From an uncultured bacterium (GTDB taxonomy: Bacteria; Planctomycetota; UBA1135; GCA-002686595), in contig CALSNU010000001.1 of the NCBI GenBank assembly GCA_943787795.1, positions 768,001 through 832,000 on the forward strand: DNA of 64,000 nt. Direction: 5' to 3'. The notes beneath the pieces were generated by a model, which had not been told where the DNA came from, did not search any database, and saw only the letters and a list, made by a program, of their open reading frames with translations. The translations under genes and the position numbers were made by a program. This document shows positions 1-23,894 of this stretch, in pieces. Every line of letters begins with the position of its first letter. Position 1 is the first letter of the stretch.

Positions 1-411
1 GCAAAAGCCTGCGGCGAGCCCCAGGTCCAGGGCATGGGGGAGGTGGAGGCGGTACTTCCTGGCGGCATAGAGCCCGAGGGCGATCCCCCCAAAGGTGCCG
101 CCGTACATGACGAGGCCGCCCTCCCAGTAGTAGAGGATCGTCATGGGGTCATCGAGGTAGCGCTGTCCGGTGGCGCTGCCGCGGAAGATCTCGACGATGA
201 CGTACATGGCCCTGGCCCCAAGGAGGATCCCCACGAGGATCCACATGGGGACGGCGGCGAACCCGGGGGCATCGGCCTCTCGGTCGACGGCGTAGCGGTC
301 GCCGAGCTTGCCGTAGAGGTGGGTGCCGACGAGGAAGCCGAGCACCACCATCAGGCCGAAGGCGCGCAGGGGGACGCCGATCAGCGGGATCTCGAAGAGG
401 ATCGGGTACAT
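1..411 (-). CDS. lgt: Prolipoprotein diacylglyceryl transferase (5' part; runs off the window edge)
   Basis: Not in the ORF track. Manual translation from the ATG at 411 gives MYPILFEIPLIGVPLRAFGLMVVLGFLVG...ILLGARAMYVI...YYWEGGLVMYGG, matching the Lgt N-terminus and its GAR and W.GGL..YGG motifs. Confidence 0.88.
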   Translation of the reverse strand, partial: MYPILFEIPLIGVPLRAFGLMVVLGFLVGTHLYGKLGDRYAVDREADAPGFAAVPMWILVGILLGARAMYVIVEIFRGSATGQRYLDDPMTILYYWEGGLVMYGGTFGGIALGLYAARKYRLHLPHALDLGLAAGFC

Positions 412-584: not shown

Positions 585-1424
585 ATGAACACGCCCCCCA
601 AGGCCAAGCTCTTCGTCGAGGGGCGCTATCTCAAGCACTCCCGAGACCTCCCCCAGACGGTCTTCTTTTGTCCCGAGTGCAAGGGGCACCCCCGGAGGCG
701 CCGCAAGTGCGAGAAGTGCGAGGGGTTCGGCAAGCTCACCAAGGACTCGGTCCAGGAGCTCATCGGCTGGGTGCTCGGCAAGGCCGCGGGGACCCGCAAG
801 CACAAGTTCCACGGCGCCGGCCGCGAGGACGTCGACGTGCGGATGCTCGGTGACGGGCGCCCATTTGTCATGGAGCTGGTGGACCCGCGGGACCACCAGG
901 TGGACCTGGCGGAGATCGAGGCGACCATCAACTCGCGCAACGAGGGGCGGCTCGAGGTGCGCGGGCTGCACTGGACCCAGAAGGGCAGGGTGCGGTTCCT
1001 CAAGGAGGGCACCTTCGCGAAGGAGTACTGCGCCCGCGTCGAGGTCGACCAGCGGCCGAGCGAGGAGACCGTCGCGGCTCTGATCGGACGCCGCTACGAG
1101 GTCGCCCAGCAGACCCCGAGCCGCGTGGCGCACCGCCGAGCGGACAAGGTCCGTGAGCGCTGGATCGAGGTGCTCGACGTGCAGCTGGATCCCGAGGAGG
1201 ACCTGTTCCTCAGCGTCACCATTCGGACCCAGGCGGGGACCTACGTCAAGGAGGCCATCAGCGGCGAGGGCGGCATGAGCCAGCCGTCCATTGCCGAGCT
1301 CCTCGGGGTCGGCAGCGCCAAGTGCGCGAGCCTCGACGTCCTCGCGATCCTCGATCAGGAGGAGGGCGAGGAGGCCGGTGAATCCAACCCGACCTCATTG
1401 GGGTTCGGGTCAGGGCTCTCCTGA
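585..1424 (+). CDS. Pus10-family tRNA pseudouridine(54/55) synthase, catalytic domain only
   Basis: Motifs GRYLK.SRDLPQT, CPEC...CEKC, SVQELI, FHGAGREDVDVRMLG.GRPFVME (catalytic Asp), QQTP.RV.HRR...RER and TQAGTYVKE. ATG at 585 is in frame with ORF 468..1424. Confidence 0.88.
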   Translation: MNTPPKAKLFVEGRYLKHSRDLPQTVFFCPECKGHPRRRRKCEKCEGFGKLTKDSVQELIGWVLGKAAGTRKHKFHGAGREDVDVRMLGDGRPFVMELVDPRDHQVDLAEIEATINSRNEGRLEVRGLHWTQKGRVRFLKEGTFAKEYCARVEVDQRPSEETVAALIGRRYEVAQQTPSRVAHRRADKVRERWIEVLDVQLDPEEDLFLSVTIRTQAGTYVKEAISGEGGMSQPSIAELLGVGSAKCASLDVLAILDQEEGEEAGESNPTSLGFGSGLS

Positions 1425-1934: not shown

Positions 1935-2435
1935 TCAAAAGAGCACGCCCATGACCGTCGCCTCGAAGACCCTCTTGGGCTGCAGCACGCCATCGCGCTC
2001 CACGAAGCCTTCGGCGCTGTACTTGAACATCCGGCTCCCCGCGCGCTCGAGCTTGACCGCGAGGAACATCGTGCAGGGCGGCTCCACAACGCCGCGGAAG
2101 CGGCAATCGTCCACACCTCCGAACCCGACGAAGCGCCCGTCAGACTCCTCCACCCTGTGCTTGGAGTAGTCGAAGGAGGCGATCTGCGCCGCCGTCTCGA
2201 TCATCAGCGCCCCGGGGAACATGGGGCGGCCAGGAATGTGATCCTCGGCCCACCAGTCCTCGCTCCGGATGGCCTTCACGCCAACGGCGATCCCGCCCTC
2301 CGCATCCACGTAGGCGAGGTGATCGAGCACAGCGAAGGTCCCCCGCTGCGCTAGGTATTCGTCCAGCGTCGCGCGGTTCACCGCGACGTGGGTCCGATCG
2401 ATGCTCTCTAGGTCGAGGATGGGTTGGATCGACAT
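1935..2435 (-). CDS. fabZ: FabA/FabZ-family 3-hydroxyacyl-ACP dehydratase (FabZ-type)
   Basis: DHIPGRPMFPGALMIETAAQ (His/Glu dyad motif) and GVDDCRFRGVVEP. ATG at 2435 (MSIQPILD), 166 aa. Confidence 0.8.
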   Translation of the reverse strand: MSIQPILDLESIDRTHVAVNRATLDEYLAQRGTFAVLDHLAYVDAEGGIAVGVKAIRSEDWWAEDHIPGRPMFPGALMIETAAQIASFDYSKHRVEESDGRFVGFGGVDDCRFRGVVEPPCTMFLAVKLERAGSRMFKYSAEGFVERDGVLQPKRVFEATVMGVLF

Positions 2436-11788: not shown

Positions 11789-12805
11789 ATGAACACCGGC
11801 TCACTCAACGAACGAATCACGCGCGCTCTCGCCTTCATGCTCCGTCACCAGCCGGAGGAGTTCGACCTCGAACTCGACCGCTTCGGCTGGGGGGACCTCG
11901 AGGACGTGGTCTACGCTCTTCAGGAGCGTACGGGCTCCACGGTGGAGGAGGAGGACGTGGCCGAGGCCATCGAGTCCAGCGATCGACCGCGGTACGAGAT
12001 CAAGGACGGCAAGATCCGCGCCCTGTACGGGCACTCGATCCAGATCGACCCCGGTGAGGCCACCGAGCCGCCGGACGAGCTCTTCATCGGCGTCGGGAGT
12101 CGTGACGCCTCCCGGGCCGAGGACAGCGGCCTGCGGAGCGGCCGACGCGCGTTCCTTCACCTCGCTCGAACCGAGGAGGAGGCGAGGGAGTCGGGGCGCC
12201 GTATCGCCCGCGACTACGCCGTGGTGACGGTCTTCGCCGGCGAGGCTTTCGACGAGGGCACCGAGTTCTATGACCGCGGCGCCCTCTTCCTGGCGGACGA
12301 GATCCCCGGTGAGTTCCTCGAGGTCGGCGAGATTCAGCATGACGGCATCGAGCGCGACGAGAACCGACGTTCGCGCGGCCGCCGCAACGCGGACGGTCCC
12401 CGTGGATCACGCCGCGGCCGAGGTCGCGGGCGCGGTCGAGGTGGACGTGATGACGAGCGGTCGTCGAACTCGGACCGTGACCGGGACCGCAGCGAGCCTC
12501 GTCGCGACCGCGAGGAGCCCCGCCGCGAGGAGCCCCGCCGCGAGGAGCGAGCGCCTCGCGAGGCGGAGGCTGCGCCTGCGGAGTCCGGCTCATTCGGAGT
12601 CGGTCTCGCCGGAGCCGCGGCCCGGCGCGCCGAGGACACGGAGCGATCCAAGCCGGAGCCGAGGAAGGCCCAGGACCAACCGAAGACTGAGCCGAAGACT
12701 GAGCCGAAGACTGAACCGAAGGCCGAGCGTAAGCCTGAGCCTCGCAAGCAGGATCGTGAAGAGGAGCCGGGGTCGGCCCCCTCTGGATTCGGCGCGGGAC
12801 TGTAA
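11789..12805 (+). CDS. kptA: RNA 2'-phosphotransferase (Tpt1/KptA family) with a long disordered C-terminal tail
   Basis: LAFMLRHQP, LDRFGW, RPRYE, IRALYGHS and GLRSGRRAFLHL; C-terminal ~150 aa rich in R/G/E/P. Confidence 0.82.
   Translation: MNTGSLNERITRALAFMLRHQPEEFDLELDRFGWGDLEDVVYALQERTGSTVEEEDVAEAIESSDRPRYEIKDGKIRALYGHSIQIDPGEATEPPDELFIGVGSRDASRAEDSGLRSGRRAFLHLARTEEEARESGRRIARDYAVVTVFAGEAFDEGTEFYDRGALFLADEIPGEFLEVGEIQHDGIERDENRRSRGRRNADGPRGSRRGRGRGRGRGGRDDERSSNSDRDRDRSEPRRDREEPRREEPRREERAPREAEAAPAESGSFGVGLAGAAARRAEDTERSKPEPRKAQDQPKTEPKTEPKTEPKAERKPEPRKQDREEEPGSAPSGFGAGL
12680..12721 (+). repeat. 12-bp coding tandem repeat (PKTE x3.5) in the KptA tail
   Basis: ccgaagactgag ccgaagactgag ccgaagactgaa ccgaag. 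Confidence 0.85.
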
Positions 12806-19012: not shown

Positions 19013-19417
19013 CTAGCTCGCGGGGCCGTCGGACCCCTCGCTCGGCTCCTCTTGGCCTCGGATCTGCCGGTCCTTCCTGAGCGCCTGGGTGATCATGTCG
19101 TCCATCTGCTCGGCGTCGGACGCGGTGGTATCGGCGAGGAAACGGAGCTGAGGGATCGACCTCGTCTCGAGCACGCGGCCCACCTGCTTGCGGATGAAGC
19201 CTGTGGCATGCTCGAGCATCTGTGACGCCTGGGACCGCTCGGAGCTGCTCCCGAGGACGGAGTAGAAGAGCTTCGCCACGGACAAGTCCGAGTTGAGCTC
19301 CACGCGGACGATCGTGATGAACTGCGCTCGAGGATCAGAGATCTCGTGCTGGAGACAGTGCGCGGCACGGCGCTGAATCGCAGCCTCGATACGGGCAATA
19401 GTACGCGGGTTCGCCAT
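19013..19417 (-). CDS. rbfA: 30S ribosome-binding factor A
   Basis: ISDPR, ITIVRVELNSDLSVAK, GFIRKQVG and IPQLRF..D; downstream of infB. Confidence 0.92.
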   Translation of the reverse strand: MANPRTIARIEAAIQRRAAHCLQHEISDPRAQFITIVRVELNSDLSVAKLFYSVLGSSSERSQASQMLEHATGFIRKQVGRVLETRSIPQLRFLADTTASDAEQMDDMITQALRKDRQIRGQEEPSEGSDGPAS

Positions 19418-19459
19418 GGTTCCTTTTCCTCGGGCAGCCCGGTGACGGGCCTCACGAAA

Positions 19460-19484
19460 GGCGGGGCACCGGAGGTGCCCCGCC
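19460..19484 (-). terminator. GC-rich hairpin between infB and rbfA, terminator-like with a short U tract
   Basis: Perfect 11-bp inverted repeat GGCGGGGCACC-GGA-GGTGCCCCGCC, followed by TTTC on the minus strand. Confidence 0.55.
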
Positions 19485-19519
19485 CGGGTCGAGCGCCGCG
19501 CGGCCGCGGCGTCGTTCGA

Positions 19520-22450
19520 TCAGAGCGACCGCTTGATCTCCTTCATGCGGTACGCCTCGACCACGTCTTCCAGGCGGATGTCGCGGAAGTCCTTGAGGAC
19601 GATGCCGCACTCGAAGCCGGAGCGGACCTCGTTGGCCTCCTCCTTCTCCCGTCGGAGCGACCCGATCTGGCCGGTGTACACGACGGTGCCATCGCGGATC
19701 AGGCGCACCTTGTTGCTGCGCTTGACCGTGCCGTCGGTGACCATGCAGCCAGCGATGAGTCCGATCTTGGAGGACTTGAAGAGCCGTCGAATCTCGACGT
19801 GGCCCATGATCTCCTCCTCGTACTCCGGCTTCAGCGCGCCTTCCATGACGCGTCGGAGGTCATCGAGCAGCTCGTAGATGACGCCGTAGCGGCGTACAAC
19901 GAGGCCGCCGCGCTCAGCCGCCTGACGCGCCTTCGGGTTCACCGAGACGTGGAAGGCGATCAGCAGAGCTTCAGAGGTGGAGGCGAGGTCGACATCGCTC
20001 TCCGTGATGGGGCCGACGCCGGCGTGCACCAGCTTGACCTGGACCTCGTCGTGCTCGAGCGCGTCGATCTCCTGGCGGATGACCTCGACCGAGCCCTGGA
20101 CGTCCGCGCGGACAATGACGTTGATGACCTCGCGCTCCGTCTTCGGAGCGGACCCGAGGATCGCCTCGAGCTCGCGGCTCGGCTCGCGCTTGGACGCCAG
20201 CATCTTGGCTCGGCTCGTGCGCTCGCGCTCCTGGGCGATCTCTTTGGCCTGAGCCAGGGTCTCGATGACGTGGAAGGGCTGCCCGACGCCCGGGAGGGCG
20301 TCGAGGCCGGTGACCGACACGGGGGTCGATGGGCCGGCGACCTTCAGGGTCTTGCCTCGGTCATTGATGATCTGGCGGACCTTGCCGTAGCCCTCGCCGG
20401 CGAGGATGACGTCGCCCTTGTTGAGCGTGCCGTCCTGCACGAGAAGGTGGGCGATGATGCCCCTGCCCTGCTGGATCTCGGCCTCGAGGACCACGCCAGC
20501 GGCCGGGCCGTCCGGGTGGGCACGGAGGCCCAACTCGGACTCGCCCATGAGGAAGATGTGCTCGAGGAGCTCCTCGATGCCGTCTCCAGTCATGCCTGAG
20601 GTCTCGAACATGGCGGTCTTGCCGCCGTACTGCTCAGGGACAAGCTCCTGGCCCATCAGCTGCTGGATCACCGAGTTCGCGTTGAACTCGGGGCGGTCCT
20701 TCTTGTTGATGGCGACCACGATAGGGGTGCCGGCCGCGCGGGCGTGTGCGATGGCCTCGACGGTGCTCGGCTTGACGCCGTCATCTCCAGCGACCACGAG
20801 CACGACAATGTCCACGGCCTTGGCGCCTCGGGCGCGCATCGCCGTGAAGGCCTGGTGACCGGGGGTGTCAACGATGGTGACGGTGTGGCCCAGACGGGTC
20901 TGGACCTGGTACGCGCCGACGTGCTGCGTGATGCCGCCCGACTCCTTGTCCGCGACCTTGGTCTCGCGGATCTTGTCGATGAGCGTCGTCTTGCCGTGGT
21001 CGACGTGGCCGAGGAACGCCACGGTGGGGGAGCGCTCGAAGAGCAGCTCCTCCTCGATCTCGCTTCGCTTCTTGGCGACCTCGTCGATCATCAGCTGCTC
21101 GGCGGTGACCTCCTGCTTGACCTCGAGGGTGACCCCGAACTCGGAGGCGAGGAGCGTCGCCGTGTCGCCGTCGATGGTCGCGTTCAGCGTGAACATGCCG
21201 AGCTGCTGCTCGAGGGCCCGCTTCTGGACCACGCTGCTCTTGAGCGAGAGGCCGTCGGCGAGCTTCGCCATCGTGATCGGCTCCTCGATCGCGACGGTGC
21301 TCCCGCGGTAAGGCGACTCGGTGACCTGGTCTCGGCTGCCGCCGCGACCGCCGCTGTTCCGGCGACCCGGAGGCCCGCCAGCAGCTCGGTTGCGCCGCAG
21401 GAAGCGGCCCTGCTCGCGCTCGCGGAGCTCCGCGGCGGTCATCTTGCCTCGCGGCCCGGCGGGGCCAGCCTGGCGGTTGCGGTCACGTCCGAAGGTGGGG
21501 CGGACGTCGGGCGTCGCGTCATCCCTCGACTGGAGCCTGCGAGAATCCGGGCGGCTTCGGCTGGGCGAGGCCTGCTGGAAGCTCGACGGATCGATGAAGC
21601 CGACGACGTTGCCCTTGCGGCCGGCGCCCTCTGTTGCGGCAGGCGCCGCAGTGTCACCTGCTGCTGGAGCCGGCTTGGGAGCGTCGCCAGCCGGAGTCTC
21701 AGGGGCGGGAGCGGCCGGAGACTCAGCCACCGTGCCTTCGGCGGCGGGCGCCGCCGGGCCAGCTTCGGCAGCGGGGGGCGCCTCGATCGGTGCGGAGACC
21801 TCGCTCACTGGCTGGGGAGCCGTCGGCGCTTCAGCCCCGGTAGCGTCAGGCTGGGGAGCCTCCGCAGCGGGAGCCGCAGCGGTCGGAGCCTCGACAGCGG
21901 GAGCAGTAGGGGTCTCGGAGACGGGGGCCTCGGCGACCGGAGCTCCAGCGGCCGGAGCCTCCGCGGCCGGAGCTTCAGCCGCAGGAGCCTCGGCGGCGGG
22001 AGCTTCAGCGGCGGGAGCCTCAGCCGCAGGAGCCTCAGCCGCAGGAGCCTCAGCCGCAGGAGCCTCAGCCGCAGGAGCCTCAGCGGCGGGCGCAGGCGCG
22101 ACCGGAGCCGGAGCAGGGGGAGCCGCGGCGGTGGGAGCCGGGGTCTTCTTCCTGCGCTTCAGGCCGGGGAGGCCGGCGAGTGCGCCGTCGTGGTCTTCCG
22201 CGGCAGCGGCCTTCCTGCGCTTCTTGACGCGCAGTCCGCCGCTCTCGTCAGCGGGGGCCTCTTCAGGCTCGCTGGGCGAGATGCCGTTGGCCTCGAGCAG
22301 TCCCATCGCCTGGACCTGCTCGAACTGGTCCAACGCGGACATGTGGCTCTTCGCCTTGCTGAATCCGAAGTCTCGAAGCTTGGACGCCAGGTCCTTGCCG
22401 GGCATGCCGTACTTCTTCGCGAGATCGTGGATGCGTACCTTGTCGCTCAA
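19520..22450 (-). CDS. infB: Translation initiation factor IF-2
   Basis: N-terminal KVRIHDLAK, GHVDHGKTT, GGITQH, DTPGH, NKKD and GFECGI. TTG start at 22450 inferred. Confidence 0.97.
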   Translation of the reverse strand: MSDKVRIHDLAKKYGMPGKDLASKLRDFGFSKAKSHMSALDQFEQVQAMGLLEANGISPSEPEEAPADESGGLRVKKRRKAAAAEDHDGALAGLPGLKRRKKTPAPTAAAPPAPAPVAPAPAAEAPAAEAPAAEAPAAEAPAAEAPAAEAPAAEAPAAEAPAAEAPAAGAPVAEAPVSETPTAPAVEAPTAAAPAAEAPQPDATGAEAPTAPQPVSEVSAPIEAPPAAEAGPAAPAAEGTVAESPAAPAPETPAGDAPKPAPAAGDTAAPAATEGAGRKGNVVGFIDPSSFQQASPSRSRPDSRRLQSRDDATPDVRPTFGRDRNRQAGPAGPRGKMTAAELREREQGRFLRRNRAAGGPPGRRNSGGRGGSRDQVTESPYRGSTVAIEEPITMAKLADGLSLKSSVVQKRALEQQLGMFTLNATIDGDTATLLASEFGVTLEVKQEVTAEQLMIDEVAKKRSEIEEELLFERSPTVAFLGHVDHGKTTLIDKIRETKVADKESGGITQHVGAYQVQTRLGHTVTIVDTPGHQAFTAMRARGAKAVDIVVLVVAGDDGVKPSTVEAIAHARAAGTPIVVAINKKDRPEFNANSVIQQLMGQELVPEQYGGKTAMFETSGMTGDGIEELLEHIFLMGESELGLRAHPDGPAAGVVLEAEIQQGRGIIAHLLVQDGTLNKGDVILAGEGYGKVRQIINDRGKTLKVAGPSTPVSVTGLDALPGVGQPFHVIETLAQAKEIAQERERTSRAKMLASKREPSRELEAILGSAPKTEREVINVIVRADVQGSVEVIRQEIDALEHDEVQVKLVHAGVGPITESDVDLASTSEALLIAFHVSVNPKARQAAERGGLVVRRYGVIYELLDDLRRVMEGALKPEYEEEIMGHVEIRRLFKSSKIGLIAGCMVTDGTVKRSNKVRLIRDGTVVYTGQIGSLRREKEEANEVRSGFECGIVLKDFRDIRLEDVVEAYRMKEIKRSL
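21938..22087 (-). repeat. 15-bp coding tandem repeat, 10 units (AAEAP x9 + AAGAP), in the IF-2 linker
   Basis: aggagcctcagccgc-type units on the + strand with synonymous variation. Confidence 0.92.
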
Positions 22451-22705
22451 ACTTTGGGTGTTGGGTTCTTGGGGCGCTCGTGGGGGGTGTAGAGCGCCGG
22501 GCTGGCCGTGGTCATCTCCGAGATCGGCCAGCGTGAAGATCACCTGGTTCGAGCGGGGAGATCGTCCTCAAAGCGGACGAAGTGGCGTGTTCTGGGGGGC
22601 GTTGGAAGGCCGGAGGAGTGAGCGCGCTGGAGCGCGCGACCCTCAGGCTTCATGGCGGGAGACAATCACGATGATGTGTTGGGCTCTGGGTACTCGGGGC
22701 TGGCG

Positions 22706-23845
22706 TCAGGACGCCGCCGGGGGGGCCGGCGGTTCCTCGACAGCCGCAGAATCAACCGAGGCGGCCTCGTTGGGAGCCTCCACGGGGACAGTTTCGGCTT
22801 CGGAGTGGTCCCCGGCGGGAGCCTCAGCGGACTCAGCGGGAGCCTCAACGGCACCGTCGATCTCACCCTCTGCGGGGGCAGAGCCAGCGTCTTCGAAGTA
22901 CTCCTCTCGGGTCTTGATGTCGATTTCCCAGCCGCACAGGCGGCTGGCGAGGCGGACGTTCTGGCCGCGCTTGCCGATGGCAAGGGACTGCTGCTCCTCG
23001 TCCACGAGCACCGTCACGGAGTGACGGTCGACGTGGGGGTAGATGTTGTCCAGGTGGATCTTGGCCGGCCCGAGCCCGTTCATGACGAGGGTCTCGAGGG
23101 AGTCGCTCCACCGGATGATGTCGATGCGCTCGCCGCGCAGCTCGTCGATGACGGCCTTGATCCTCGAGCCGCGGACGCCGACGCAGGCGCCAATGGCGTC
23201 GATCTTGGGGTCGCTGGAGAGGACGGCCATCTTCGTGCGATAGCCGGGCTCACGGACGACGCGCTTGATCTCGATGATCTGGTCAGCGATCTCAGGCACC
23301 TCCAGCTCGAAGAGTCGACGCACGAGGTCGGGGTGGGTCCGGCTGACCAGCACCTTGACGCGGCTGCCGTCCTTGCGGACCTCGACGATGATGACGCGGA
23401 TCCGATCGCCGGGGGCATAGGTCTCCCCGCGGACGCGGTCCTCGCGGATCAGGTTCGCCTCAACGTCTCCGAGGCTGACGATGAGGTCCTGCCCTTCGTA
23501 GCGCTGGACCTCGCCGCTGATGAGCTGGCCGACCCGTGCCTCGTACTTGTCATAGAAGACGTCGCGCTCGGCCTCTCGGACGCGCTGTGTGAACCCCTGC
23601 TTGACCGTCTGAGCGACGATCCTGCCGAGATCCTCCATGTCAAACTCGTAGACGCCTTCATCGTCCTCGATCGTGACCTCACCGGACTCCCGGTCGATGG
23701 TGCAGATCAGGTCCTCGCCCTCGCCGAAGCGCTTGCGCACGGCAGCGGCCATCGACTCCTCCAGGGCGCGGAAGATGACTTCCCGAGGGATGTTCTTCAT
23801 CGCGTGGAGCGCGTCGATTGTCTGGAGGAGGGTCTCGGGGTTCAT
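22706..23845 (-). CDS. nusA: Transcription termination/antitermination factor NusA
   Basis: LGRIVAQTVKQ, S1 domain, SRTHPDLV..LFELEVPEI, REPGYRTK, GACVGVRGSRI and AIGKRGQNVRLA. Confidence 0.97.
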   Translation of the reverse strand: MNPETLLQTIDALHAMKNIPREVIFRALEESMAAAVRKRFGEGEDLICTIDRESGEVTIEDDEGVYEFDMEDLGRIVAQTVKQGFTQRVREAERDVFYDKYEARVGQLISGEVQRYEGQDLIVSLGDVEANLIREDRVRGETYAPGDRIRVIIVEVRKDGSRVKVLVSRTHPDLVRRLFELEVPEIADQIIEIKRVVREPGYRTKMAVLSSDPKIDAIGACVGVRGSRIKAVIDELRGERIDIIRWSDSLETLVMNGLGPAKIHLDNIYPHVDRHSVTVLVDEEQQSLAIGKRGQNVRLASRLCGWEIDIKTREEYFEDAGSAPAEGEIDGAVEAPAESAEAPAGDHSEAETVPVEAPNEAASVDSAAVEEPPAPPAAS

Positions 23846-23862
23846 GGCTCGAGGTCGGGGCA

Positions 23863-23894
23863 ATAGAAAAGGAGCGGGGGAATCCCCGCTCCTT
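23863..23894 (-). terminator. Intrinsic-terminator-like hairpin in the nusA leader (putative attenuator)
   Basis: Minus strand reads AAGGAGCGGGG-ATTC-CCCCGCTCCTT-TTCTAT, ending ~20 nt before the nusA ATG. Confidence 0.65.

Follow-up and report, generated by a model that had tools for sequence, protein, structure and literature searches.

Pseudouridine at position 55 (Psi55) is among the most conserved of tRNA modifications. According to reviews of 2021, 2023, and 2025, bacteria lack Pus10 and rely on TruB to make Psi55 (PMC7912444, PMC9957541, PMC12710931). A 279-aa reading frame with Pus10 motifs in a planctomycete contig, within the 64,000-nucleotide stretch of DNA analyzed here (the window), raises the question of what such an enzyme does in a bacterium, and how it could do so without a THUMP domain. 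We argue that it is probably an ancient gain from archaea that now makes tRNA Psi55 in place of TruB.

The named homologs of the protein come from Planctomycetota, one of them, 74% identical, from strain Poly30. Because a preprint places Poly30 in the OM190 clade (10.1101/817700), the host class is probably OM190 (referred to below as the class, with families f1 to f10). Automatic annotation already labels some proteins of the class as Pus10, and in the literature searched (most subscription papers and supplements were out of scope) we found no account of Pus10 in these bacteria.

An intact Pus10 catalytic domain

The gene and the three loops that matter most for its assignment are as follows.

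585..1424, + strand: THUMP-less Pus10 gene, 279 aa (Pfam, NCBIfam, AF2 model, Foldseek)
669..719, + strand: forefinger loop CxxC-KGHPRRRRK-CxxC (aa 29-45), putative Zn knuckle with a basic spacer of 9 aa
819..836, + strand: active-site loop GREDVD, with R80, catalytic D82, and D84 (consensus GREDXD, PMC3753934)
1107..1142, + strand: thumb loop QQTPSRVAHRRA with the His183-Arg184 hook (TP.RV.HRR in 120/120 closest homologs)

Every motif named by the original prediction is present in the translation, and its assignment to the Pus10 family was borne out by profile searches. The protein lies above the curated cut-offs of both Pfam Pus10_C (PF21238; aa 10-255, E 7.6e-59, 199.5 bits vs. a cut-off of 27, profile positions 1-231 of 232) and NCBIfam TIGR01213 (256 bits vs. 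200, with coverage limited to profile positions 160-401 of 402). At E up to 0.1, the Pfam scan of the protein left TruB, TruA, TruD, RluA, and THUMP unmatched, and across Pfam and NCBIfam none of the TruB (TruB_N/TIGR00431), TruA, TruD, RluA, or RsuA profiles matched; the sole Cbf5 cross-match is weak (19 bits vs. a cut-off of 242). The only significant PDB sequence match is to residues 288-518 of human PUS10 (E 4.8e-29). In the AF2 model (mean pLDDT 89.7), a catalytic domain at approximately aa 8-257 is followed by an acidic tail (261-279) modeled at low confidence. For this model Foldseek ranks human PUS10 first (PDB entry 2v9k, with E 1.2e-23, TMq 0.76, and rmsd 2.2), with TruA (E 1e-9) and TruB (E 2e-7) far behind. 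Overall, 585-1424 encodes a genuine, intact Pus10 catalytic domain. The gene is under purifying selection: dN/dS is 0.05-0.06 between close relatives (two pairs) and 0.19-0.34 between distant ones (four pairs, GC-saturated).

Comparison with known enzymes places the protein more precisely. Its catalytic domain is 38-46% identical to the archaeal loci retrieved (TIGR01213, PF21238; COG1258 according to PMC7912444), and it shares with archaeal Pus10 the GREDxD loop, the CxxC forefinger, the HRR thumb, and a score over the equivalog cut-off. It differs from archaeal Pus10 in its bacterial host, the missing N-terminal Zn/THUMP region, a forefinger spacer of 9 rather than 4 residues, and the lack of a TrmY partner. 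Human PUS10's C-terminal domain has the same fold, but the human enzyme has a large N-domain and, by alignment, a forefinger without the Cys knuckle. Bacterial TruB (TIGR00431, PF01509) shares the superfamily fold and, as predicted here, the job of making tRNA Psi55, whereas its active-site motif is different, structural identity is only ~16%-17%, and TruB_N does not match the window protein at E up to 0.1.

For the M. jannaschii enzyme, Joardar et al. (2013, PMC3753934) describe R273, D275, D277, Y339, I412, K413, and L440, together with a thumb hook (His376-Arg377) and a forefinger bounded by Cys. Judged by motif and spacing rather than by direct alignment, R80, D82, D84, Y148, V221, K222, L250, and H183-R184 match this set (spacings of 66, 35, 39, and 28 vs. 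64, 37, 37, and 27 in M. jannaschii), and both Pus10 loops are present, the thumb as TPSRVAHRR and the forefinger as CxxC-x9-CxxC. The catalytic and thumb residues are nearly invariant in database homologs (115-120 of 120) and are kept across the 46 tabulated class loci, except for D84, which is N in six. The chemistry of the class enzyme is probably conventional.

The CxxC...CxxC element had been taken for an insert; it turned out to be the archaeal forefinger loop, found in 46/46 non-Iainarchaeota archaeal Pus10 examined. From the residue spacing in PMC3753934, it would correspond to M. jannaschii ffl1/ffl2, and its CxxC pair would bind Zn. The spacer consists of nine mostly basic residues in the window protein, compared with four in archaea, and its length varies within the class (9-10 basic residues in f1, f2, and f4; 4-6 in f3 and f5-f10). 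The knuckle has a median of 6 Lys/Arg in the class versus 3-3.5 in archaea. The median net charge of the catalytic core is +5 in the class, +5.5 in other archaea, and +9.5 in Iainarchaeota; charge compensation over the whole core was rejected, as the core is not more basic overall and the gain is confined to the knuckle. Family f5 proteins (L157-L160) carry C-terminal extensions ~40-50 aa longer than those of other class members.

The missing N-terminal domain

The N-terminal Zn/THUMP accessory domain, a canonical Pus10 feature, is absent from the window protein, which we consequently file as a truncated variant rather than a canonical Pus10. The original prediction held that the frame upstream of 585 could not accommodate this domain. 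As worded, this was incorrect: the frame stays open for 128 codons upstream of ATG585, as far as window position 201, and contains a TTG at 468. The absence of THUMP is nevertheless right in substance, because positions 201-411 are antisense to lgt, the upstream open frame matches neither Pus10_THUMP_arc nor a profile made from the closest archaeal N-domains, and same-genus relatives have a stop codon 17 codons ahead of the GRY motif. The start at ATG585 is backed by homologs, with a median of 12 aa before GRY and none reaching 70 aa (counted in the 118 of the 120 closest homologs with a recognizable GRY motif).

Could the missing domain be supplied by another gene? As far as the reviews go, an N-domain belongs to every archaeal and eukaryotic Pus10 described, so an enzyme that depends on a separately encoded RNA-binding partner deserves consideration. 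We built a profile from 20 Iainarchaeota N-domains, which recovered 3/5 other-class genomes with a fused N-domain as a positive control and is thus not fully sensitive. It matched 0/111 class genomes and nothing in a six-frame translation of this genome. Pus10_THUMP_arc (PF22023) gave nothing over its cut-off in this genome either, the lone THUMP match lies in an unrelated 415-codon frame on a different contig, and the conserved neighbors identified are lgt and fabZ. We therefore regard such a split enzyme as very unlikely.

The region upstream of the catalytic domain is ~12 aa long in the class, ~90-110 aa in 12 Pus10 examined from other classes of Planctomycetota, ~85-140 aa in Iainarchaeota, and ~160-200 aa in most archaea retrieved; ordered by length, these regions describe a stepwise reduction with the THUMP-less class at its end. 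The N-domain of the other-class proteins is reduced or degenerate, with weak PF22023 matches (8/10 at E up to 1, best 1.1e-5). Four full-length proteins (THUMP plus catalytic domain; P0302, P0318, P0335, and P0372) are named from Bipolaricaulota/Acetothermia, the names being as deposited; these too are bacterial, but with a full-length N-domain. In one genome, a second N-domain profile match (G253:C9:5542-5778, E 1.8e-4) falls in a 409-codon frame apart from that genome's Pus10.

Genomic setting

The gene lies on a 1.45-Mb contig among bacterial genes. The features of the window that concern its setting are the following.

1..411, - strand: lgt (5' part), divergent conserved neighbor (Pfam; 36/55 loci)
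1935..2435, - strand: FabZ/FabA-like dehydratase, convergent conserved neighbor (Pfam, NCBIfam; 33/55 loci)
19013..23863, - strand: nusA-infB-rbfA, with truB not following rbfA

The two flanking genes agree with the predicted setting among bacterial housekeeping genes, and the predicted host-like, GC-rich codon usage was also found (GC3 of 0.93 vs. 0.85-0.89 in five window housekeeping genes). Neither neighbor occurs at any of 13 other-class loci, compared with the 36 (lgt) and 33 (fabZ) of 55 class-type loci. It should be noted that 30 of these 55 come from a named collection and were put in the class by sequence likeness rather than genome taxonomy, and that two of the 55 (L072 and L081) bear other NCBI class labels. 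Synteny was scored by targeted tblastn with three window genes over flanks of up to 1.5-3 kb, some incomplete; clustering of neighboring ORFs was swamped by spurious GC-rich frames, and tblastn was used instead, so a further conserved neighbor may have escaped notice. The missing truB after rbfA was set aside and is not counted as evidence for TruB loss.

Some further observations concern the window and its genome. The ~500-bp intergenic stretch 3' of the gene (1425-1934) contains short degenerate GC-rich repeats (e.g., GACGGCTCGG, twice near 1501-1525). Marine metatranscriptome contigs span the Pus10 gene and also noncoding sequence at ~1580-1930, which is compatible with DNA carry-over. A frame at 11789-12805 (+) encodes a Tpt1/KptA RNA 2'-phosphotransferase domain that carries a long, charged extension at its C terminus, and a selenocysteine tRNA was called in the genome at G000:C3:34220-34319.

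Pus10 and TruB across the class and the phylum

The class sample comprised 221 genomes, counting the genome of the window (84.9% complete; the others at least 85%). Pus10_C was above cut-off in 220/221 (in pieces in a few), so that Pus10 is a class-wide core gene and no one-off. This distribution already refutes the reading of the locus as an artefact or relic, whether through archaeal DNA contaminating the bin or as a truncated gene in decay. The marker-based completeness of 84.9% and the loss of one domain might be cited for it, but they have to be set against the long bacterial contig, the host-like GC3, purifying selection, conserved synteny, and a 74%-identical homolog in the 7.7-Mb record of a cultured isolate (P0022). 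We consider its probability negligible.

TruB_N was detected in just 3/221 class genomes and in 0/104 high-quality ones (positive control, 14/14). TruB was not found in the genome of the window (84.9% complete), where tblastn with two class TruB genes gave a best E of 0.14. The genome-wide search thus came out in favor of the predicted TruB replacement. The exceptions in the class are a typical TruB on a 1.4-kb contig (G190, possibly mis-binned) and two divergent TruB-like genes in one genus (G098 and G136); the gene in G098 reaches 141 bits where the TIGR00431 cut-off is 151. At the locus level, divergent TruB-like genes with an HGGALDPF motif were placed at L014:1126-2250(-), which scores under the cut-off, and L015:1159-2259(-), in two genomes of one class genus with Pus10, and are possibly a re-acquisition. 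Together with G489, discussed below, these make four exceptions that carry both genes (G489, G098, G136, and G190). By motif patterns, which are insensitive, other Psi-synthase motifs in this genome comprise three of the RluA/RluD type and one TruA, with no TruB, TruD, or RsuA motif.

Among 301 genomes sampled across Planctomycetota (completeness of 88% or more), Pus10_C matched 48, or 46 (21 from the class, 25 from other classes) once weak partial matches in G269 and G277 were dropped, and TruB_N matched 159. TruB accompanies a full-length Pus10 in 1/46 genomes (G489 only) versus 158/255 without one. The main caveat is that 97/301 genomes have neither gene, indicating that TruB loss is common in the phylum without a visible replacement; these genomes may lack Psi55 or use another enzyme.

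This caveat bears directly on an alternative, namely, that the loss of TruB was an independent event and that the truncated Pus10 now serves another target (rRNA, tmRNA, or a subset of tRNAs) or functions chiefly as an RNA chaperone. Targets can change when an accessory domain is lost, and noncatalytic roles are described for human PUS10 (PMC12710931). What speaks against retargeting is that the loops for T-loop recognition are invariant and that the mutual exclusion of Pus10 and TruB recurs in the other classes (1/25 Pus10-bearing genomes with both), whose acquisitions are separate in the best trees. On balance, we think retargeting unlikely.

A probable role in Psi55 formation

The preferred reading is Psi55 synthesis, which is the most likely role given canonical GTTCRA T-loops in 41/45 tRNA calls of this genome and no TruB. 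The stand-alone catalytic domain is the only candidate we found for the tRNA Psi55 synthase of the class, and a nonorthologous displacement of TruB is, in our judgment, likely. Work on archaeal enzymes provides the precedent: E. coli without truB regains Psi55 when supplied with archaeal Pus10, which is also active on a 17-mer T stem-loop (PMC3753934). By analogy, the forefinger knuckle and HRR thumb would pinch the T stem-loop, Arg80 would move in where the uridine has flipped out, and Asp82 would catalyze conversion of U55 to Psi55. THUMP, modeled as binding the tRNA 3' end, would be dispensable in the class enzyme; its loss may have been tolerated because the T-arm alone suffices as a substrate of archaeal Pus10. 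Mutant data do indicate that parts of the tRNA beyond the T-arm help Pus10 binding (PMC3753934). N-domain residues are reported to be dispensable for Psi55 (2025 review, PMC12710931), and we found in the literature no experiment on a THUMP-deleted Pus10.

Origin of the gene

Among the best 80 of 580 confirmed genome loci, 50 are archaeal and 30 bacterial (29 labeled Planctomycetota and one unlabeled). Trees of the catalytic domain were computed from 244-249 columns and thinned row sets, leaving out rows without clean motifs; eukaryotic and other DPANN sequences were not deliberately sampled for trees or tests. The class was recovered as one clade (99-100) and joined to Iainarchaeota (Diapherotrites, DPANN) with an SH-aLRT of 99 (100/99 under LG+G4; 99/96, as sister group, under LG+C20). 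The two are sister groups in the best trees and weakly nested or unresolved in others. Iainarchaeota too have a Pus10 with a shortened N-region (the window protein is 39% identical to P0190), but theirs keeps a THUMP-like segment and lacks the thumb His (0/24, vs. 24/24 class proteins). Pus10 of the other Planctomycetota classes, although bacterial and mostly without TruB (24/25), falls elsewhere, in two to four pieces (more in a larger tree) on long branches, mostly near Thermoplasmatota with weak support. AU tests rejected neither a single Planctomycetota clade (p 0.064) nor the grouping of the class and other Planctomycetota with Thermoplasmatota (p 0.090) or with Iainarchaeota (p 0.24).

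In light of these AU results, the thumb-His mismatch, and the sampling of DPANN and eukaryotes, sequence comparison makes an Iainarchaeota-related donor and multiple gains likely rather than certain. We infer the direction, from archaea to bacteria, from the patchy bacterial distribution and the domain loss. The predicted old, ameliorated cross-domain acquisition holds up. As evidence for TruB replacement, the class counts as a single inherited event rather than 220. One gain would have preceded the diversification of the class. The donor would have been an Iainarchaeota-related archaeon with a Pus10 whose N-region was by then down to ~90 aa, and the remainder would have been lost afterwards. 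Viral contigs contained no relative of this Pus10, leaving a viral vector unsupported.

The Iainarchaeota proteins at L084, L100, L104, and L132-L155 have a shortened N-region and no thumb His, and in two the Cys knuckle of the forefinger is missing as well. Three scored Iainarchaeota genomes have no TruB/Cbf5 match, and our literature search found no biochemical study of an Iainarchaeota Pus10.

Position 54

M. jannaschii Pus10 makes Psi54 as well as Psi55, both in E. coli and on the 17-mer T stem-loop, and P. furiosus Pus10, which has a short forefinger, makes Psi55 only (Joardar et al. 2013, PMC3753934). The Psi55 reading could be extended accordingly: at least in families without TrmFO, the class enzyme may form both and yield archaeal-type T-loops. 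By analogy with these enzymes this is possible, but we hold it rather doubtful, and from the sequences Psi54 activity in itself is an equally tentative proposal.

In its favor, the class enzyme retains every catalytic-domain determinant of Psi54 that has been tested (a forefinger of full size, Arg80, Tyr148, Leu250, and the His-Arg hook; PMC3753934). The search for TrmA gave 0/111 class genomes, and TrmFO in 0/66, 0/13, and 0/3 genomes of f1, f2, and f4, respectively; the TrmFO-less families mostly have the longer, basic forefinger. A check of this genome for TrmA and TrmFO returned MnmG and an RlmD-type enzyme only, its one TrmA/RlmD-family gene scoring as RlmD. On the other side, N-domain basic residues and Zn cysteines that PMC12710931 calls crucial for Psi54 are gone in the class enzyme, although a Cys mutant nevertheless retained Psi54 in vivo (PMC3753934). 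Methylation of U54 by an RlmD-type enzyme, as in Thermococcales, is conceivable. TrmFO, present in 24/111 class genomes, is confined to f3 (21/21) and f5 (3/4), where it coexists with the same intact Pus10 motifs; as M. jannaschii Pus10 outcompetes TrmA, this suggests that Psi55 alone is made there. The absence of TrmFO was rejected as support for Psi54, being weak evidence in a phylum where only 14/301 genomes have the enzyme. The association of forefinger spacer with TrmFO is confounded by kinship and broken by f6-f8, and is a lead only. TrmY was found in 0/111 class genomes, so no methylated m1Psi54 pathway is expected.

More speculative still is the fullest version of this idea, in which a whole bacterial class has an archaeal-type T-loop: a single-domain Pus10 from a DPANN-related archaeon would make Psi54 and Psi55 without THUMP, its enlarged basic zinc-knuckle forefinger replacing the lost RNA-binding domain, and TrmFO-bearing sister families would make Psi55 only.

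Implications

The bacterial Pus10 found here contradict the restriction of the family to archaea and eukaryotes stated in reviews. To our knowledge, the PUS10 literature leaves the role of THUMP and the choice between Psi54 and Psi55 open, and only an apo structure is available. The natural series of full-length proteins, proteins with an N-domain of ~90 aa, and proteins with none, with and without TrmFO, would test both. As a small mesophilic protein with one domain, the enzyme would also lend itself well to structure determination with bound RNA. By analogy with the archaeal enzymes, we are fairly confident that this THUMP-less Pus10 acts on the tRNA T-loop as archaeal pseudouridine synthases do and takes TruB's place throughout the class. 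Entry of Pus10 into bacteria seems to have happened more than once, and in this case, a whole class appears to have exchanged a core translation enzyme for an archaeal one.
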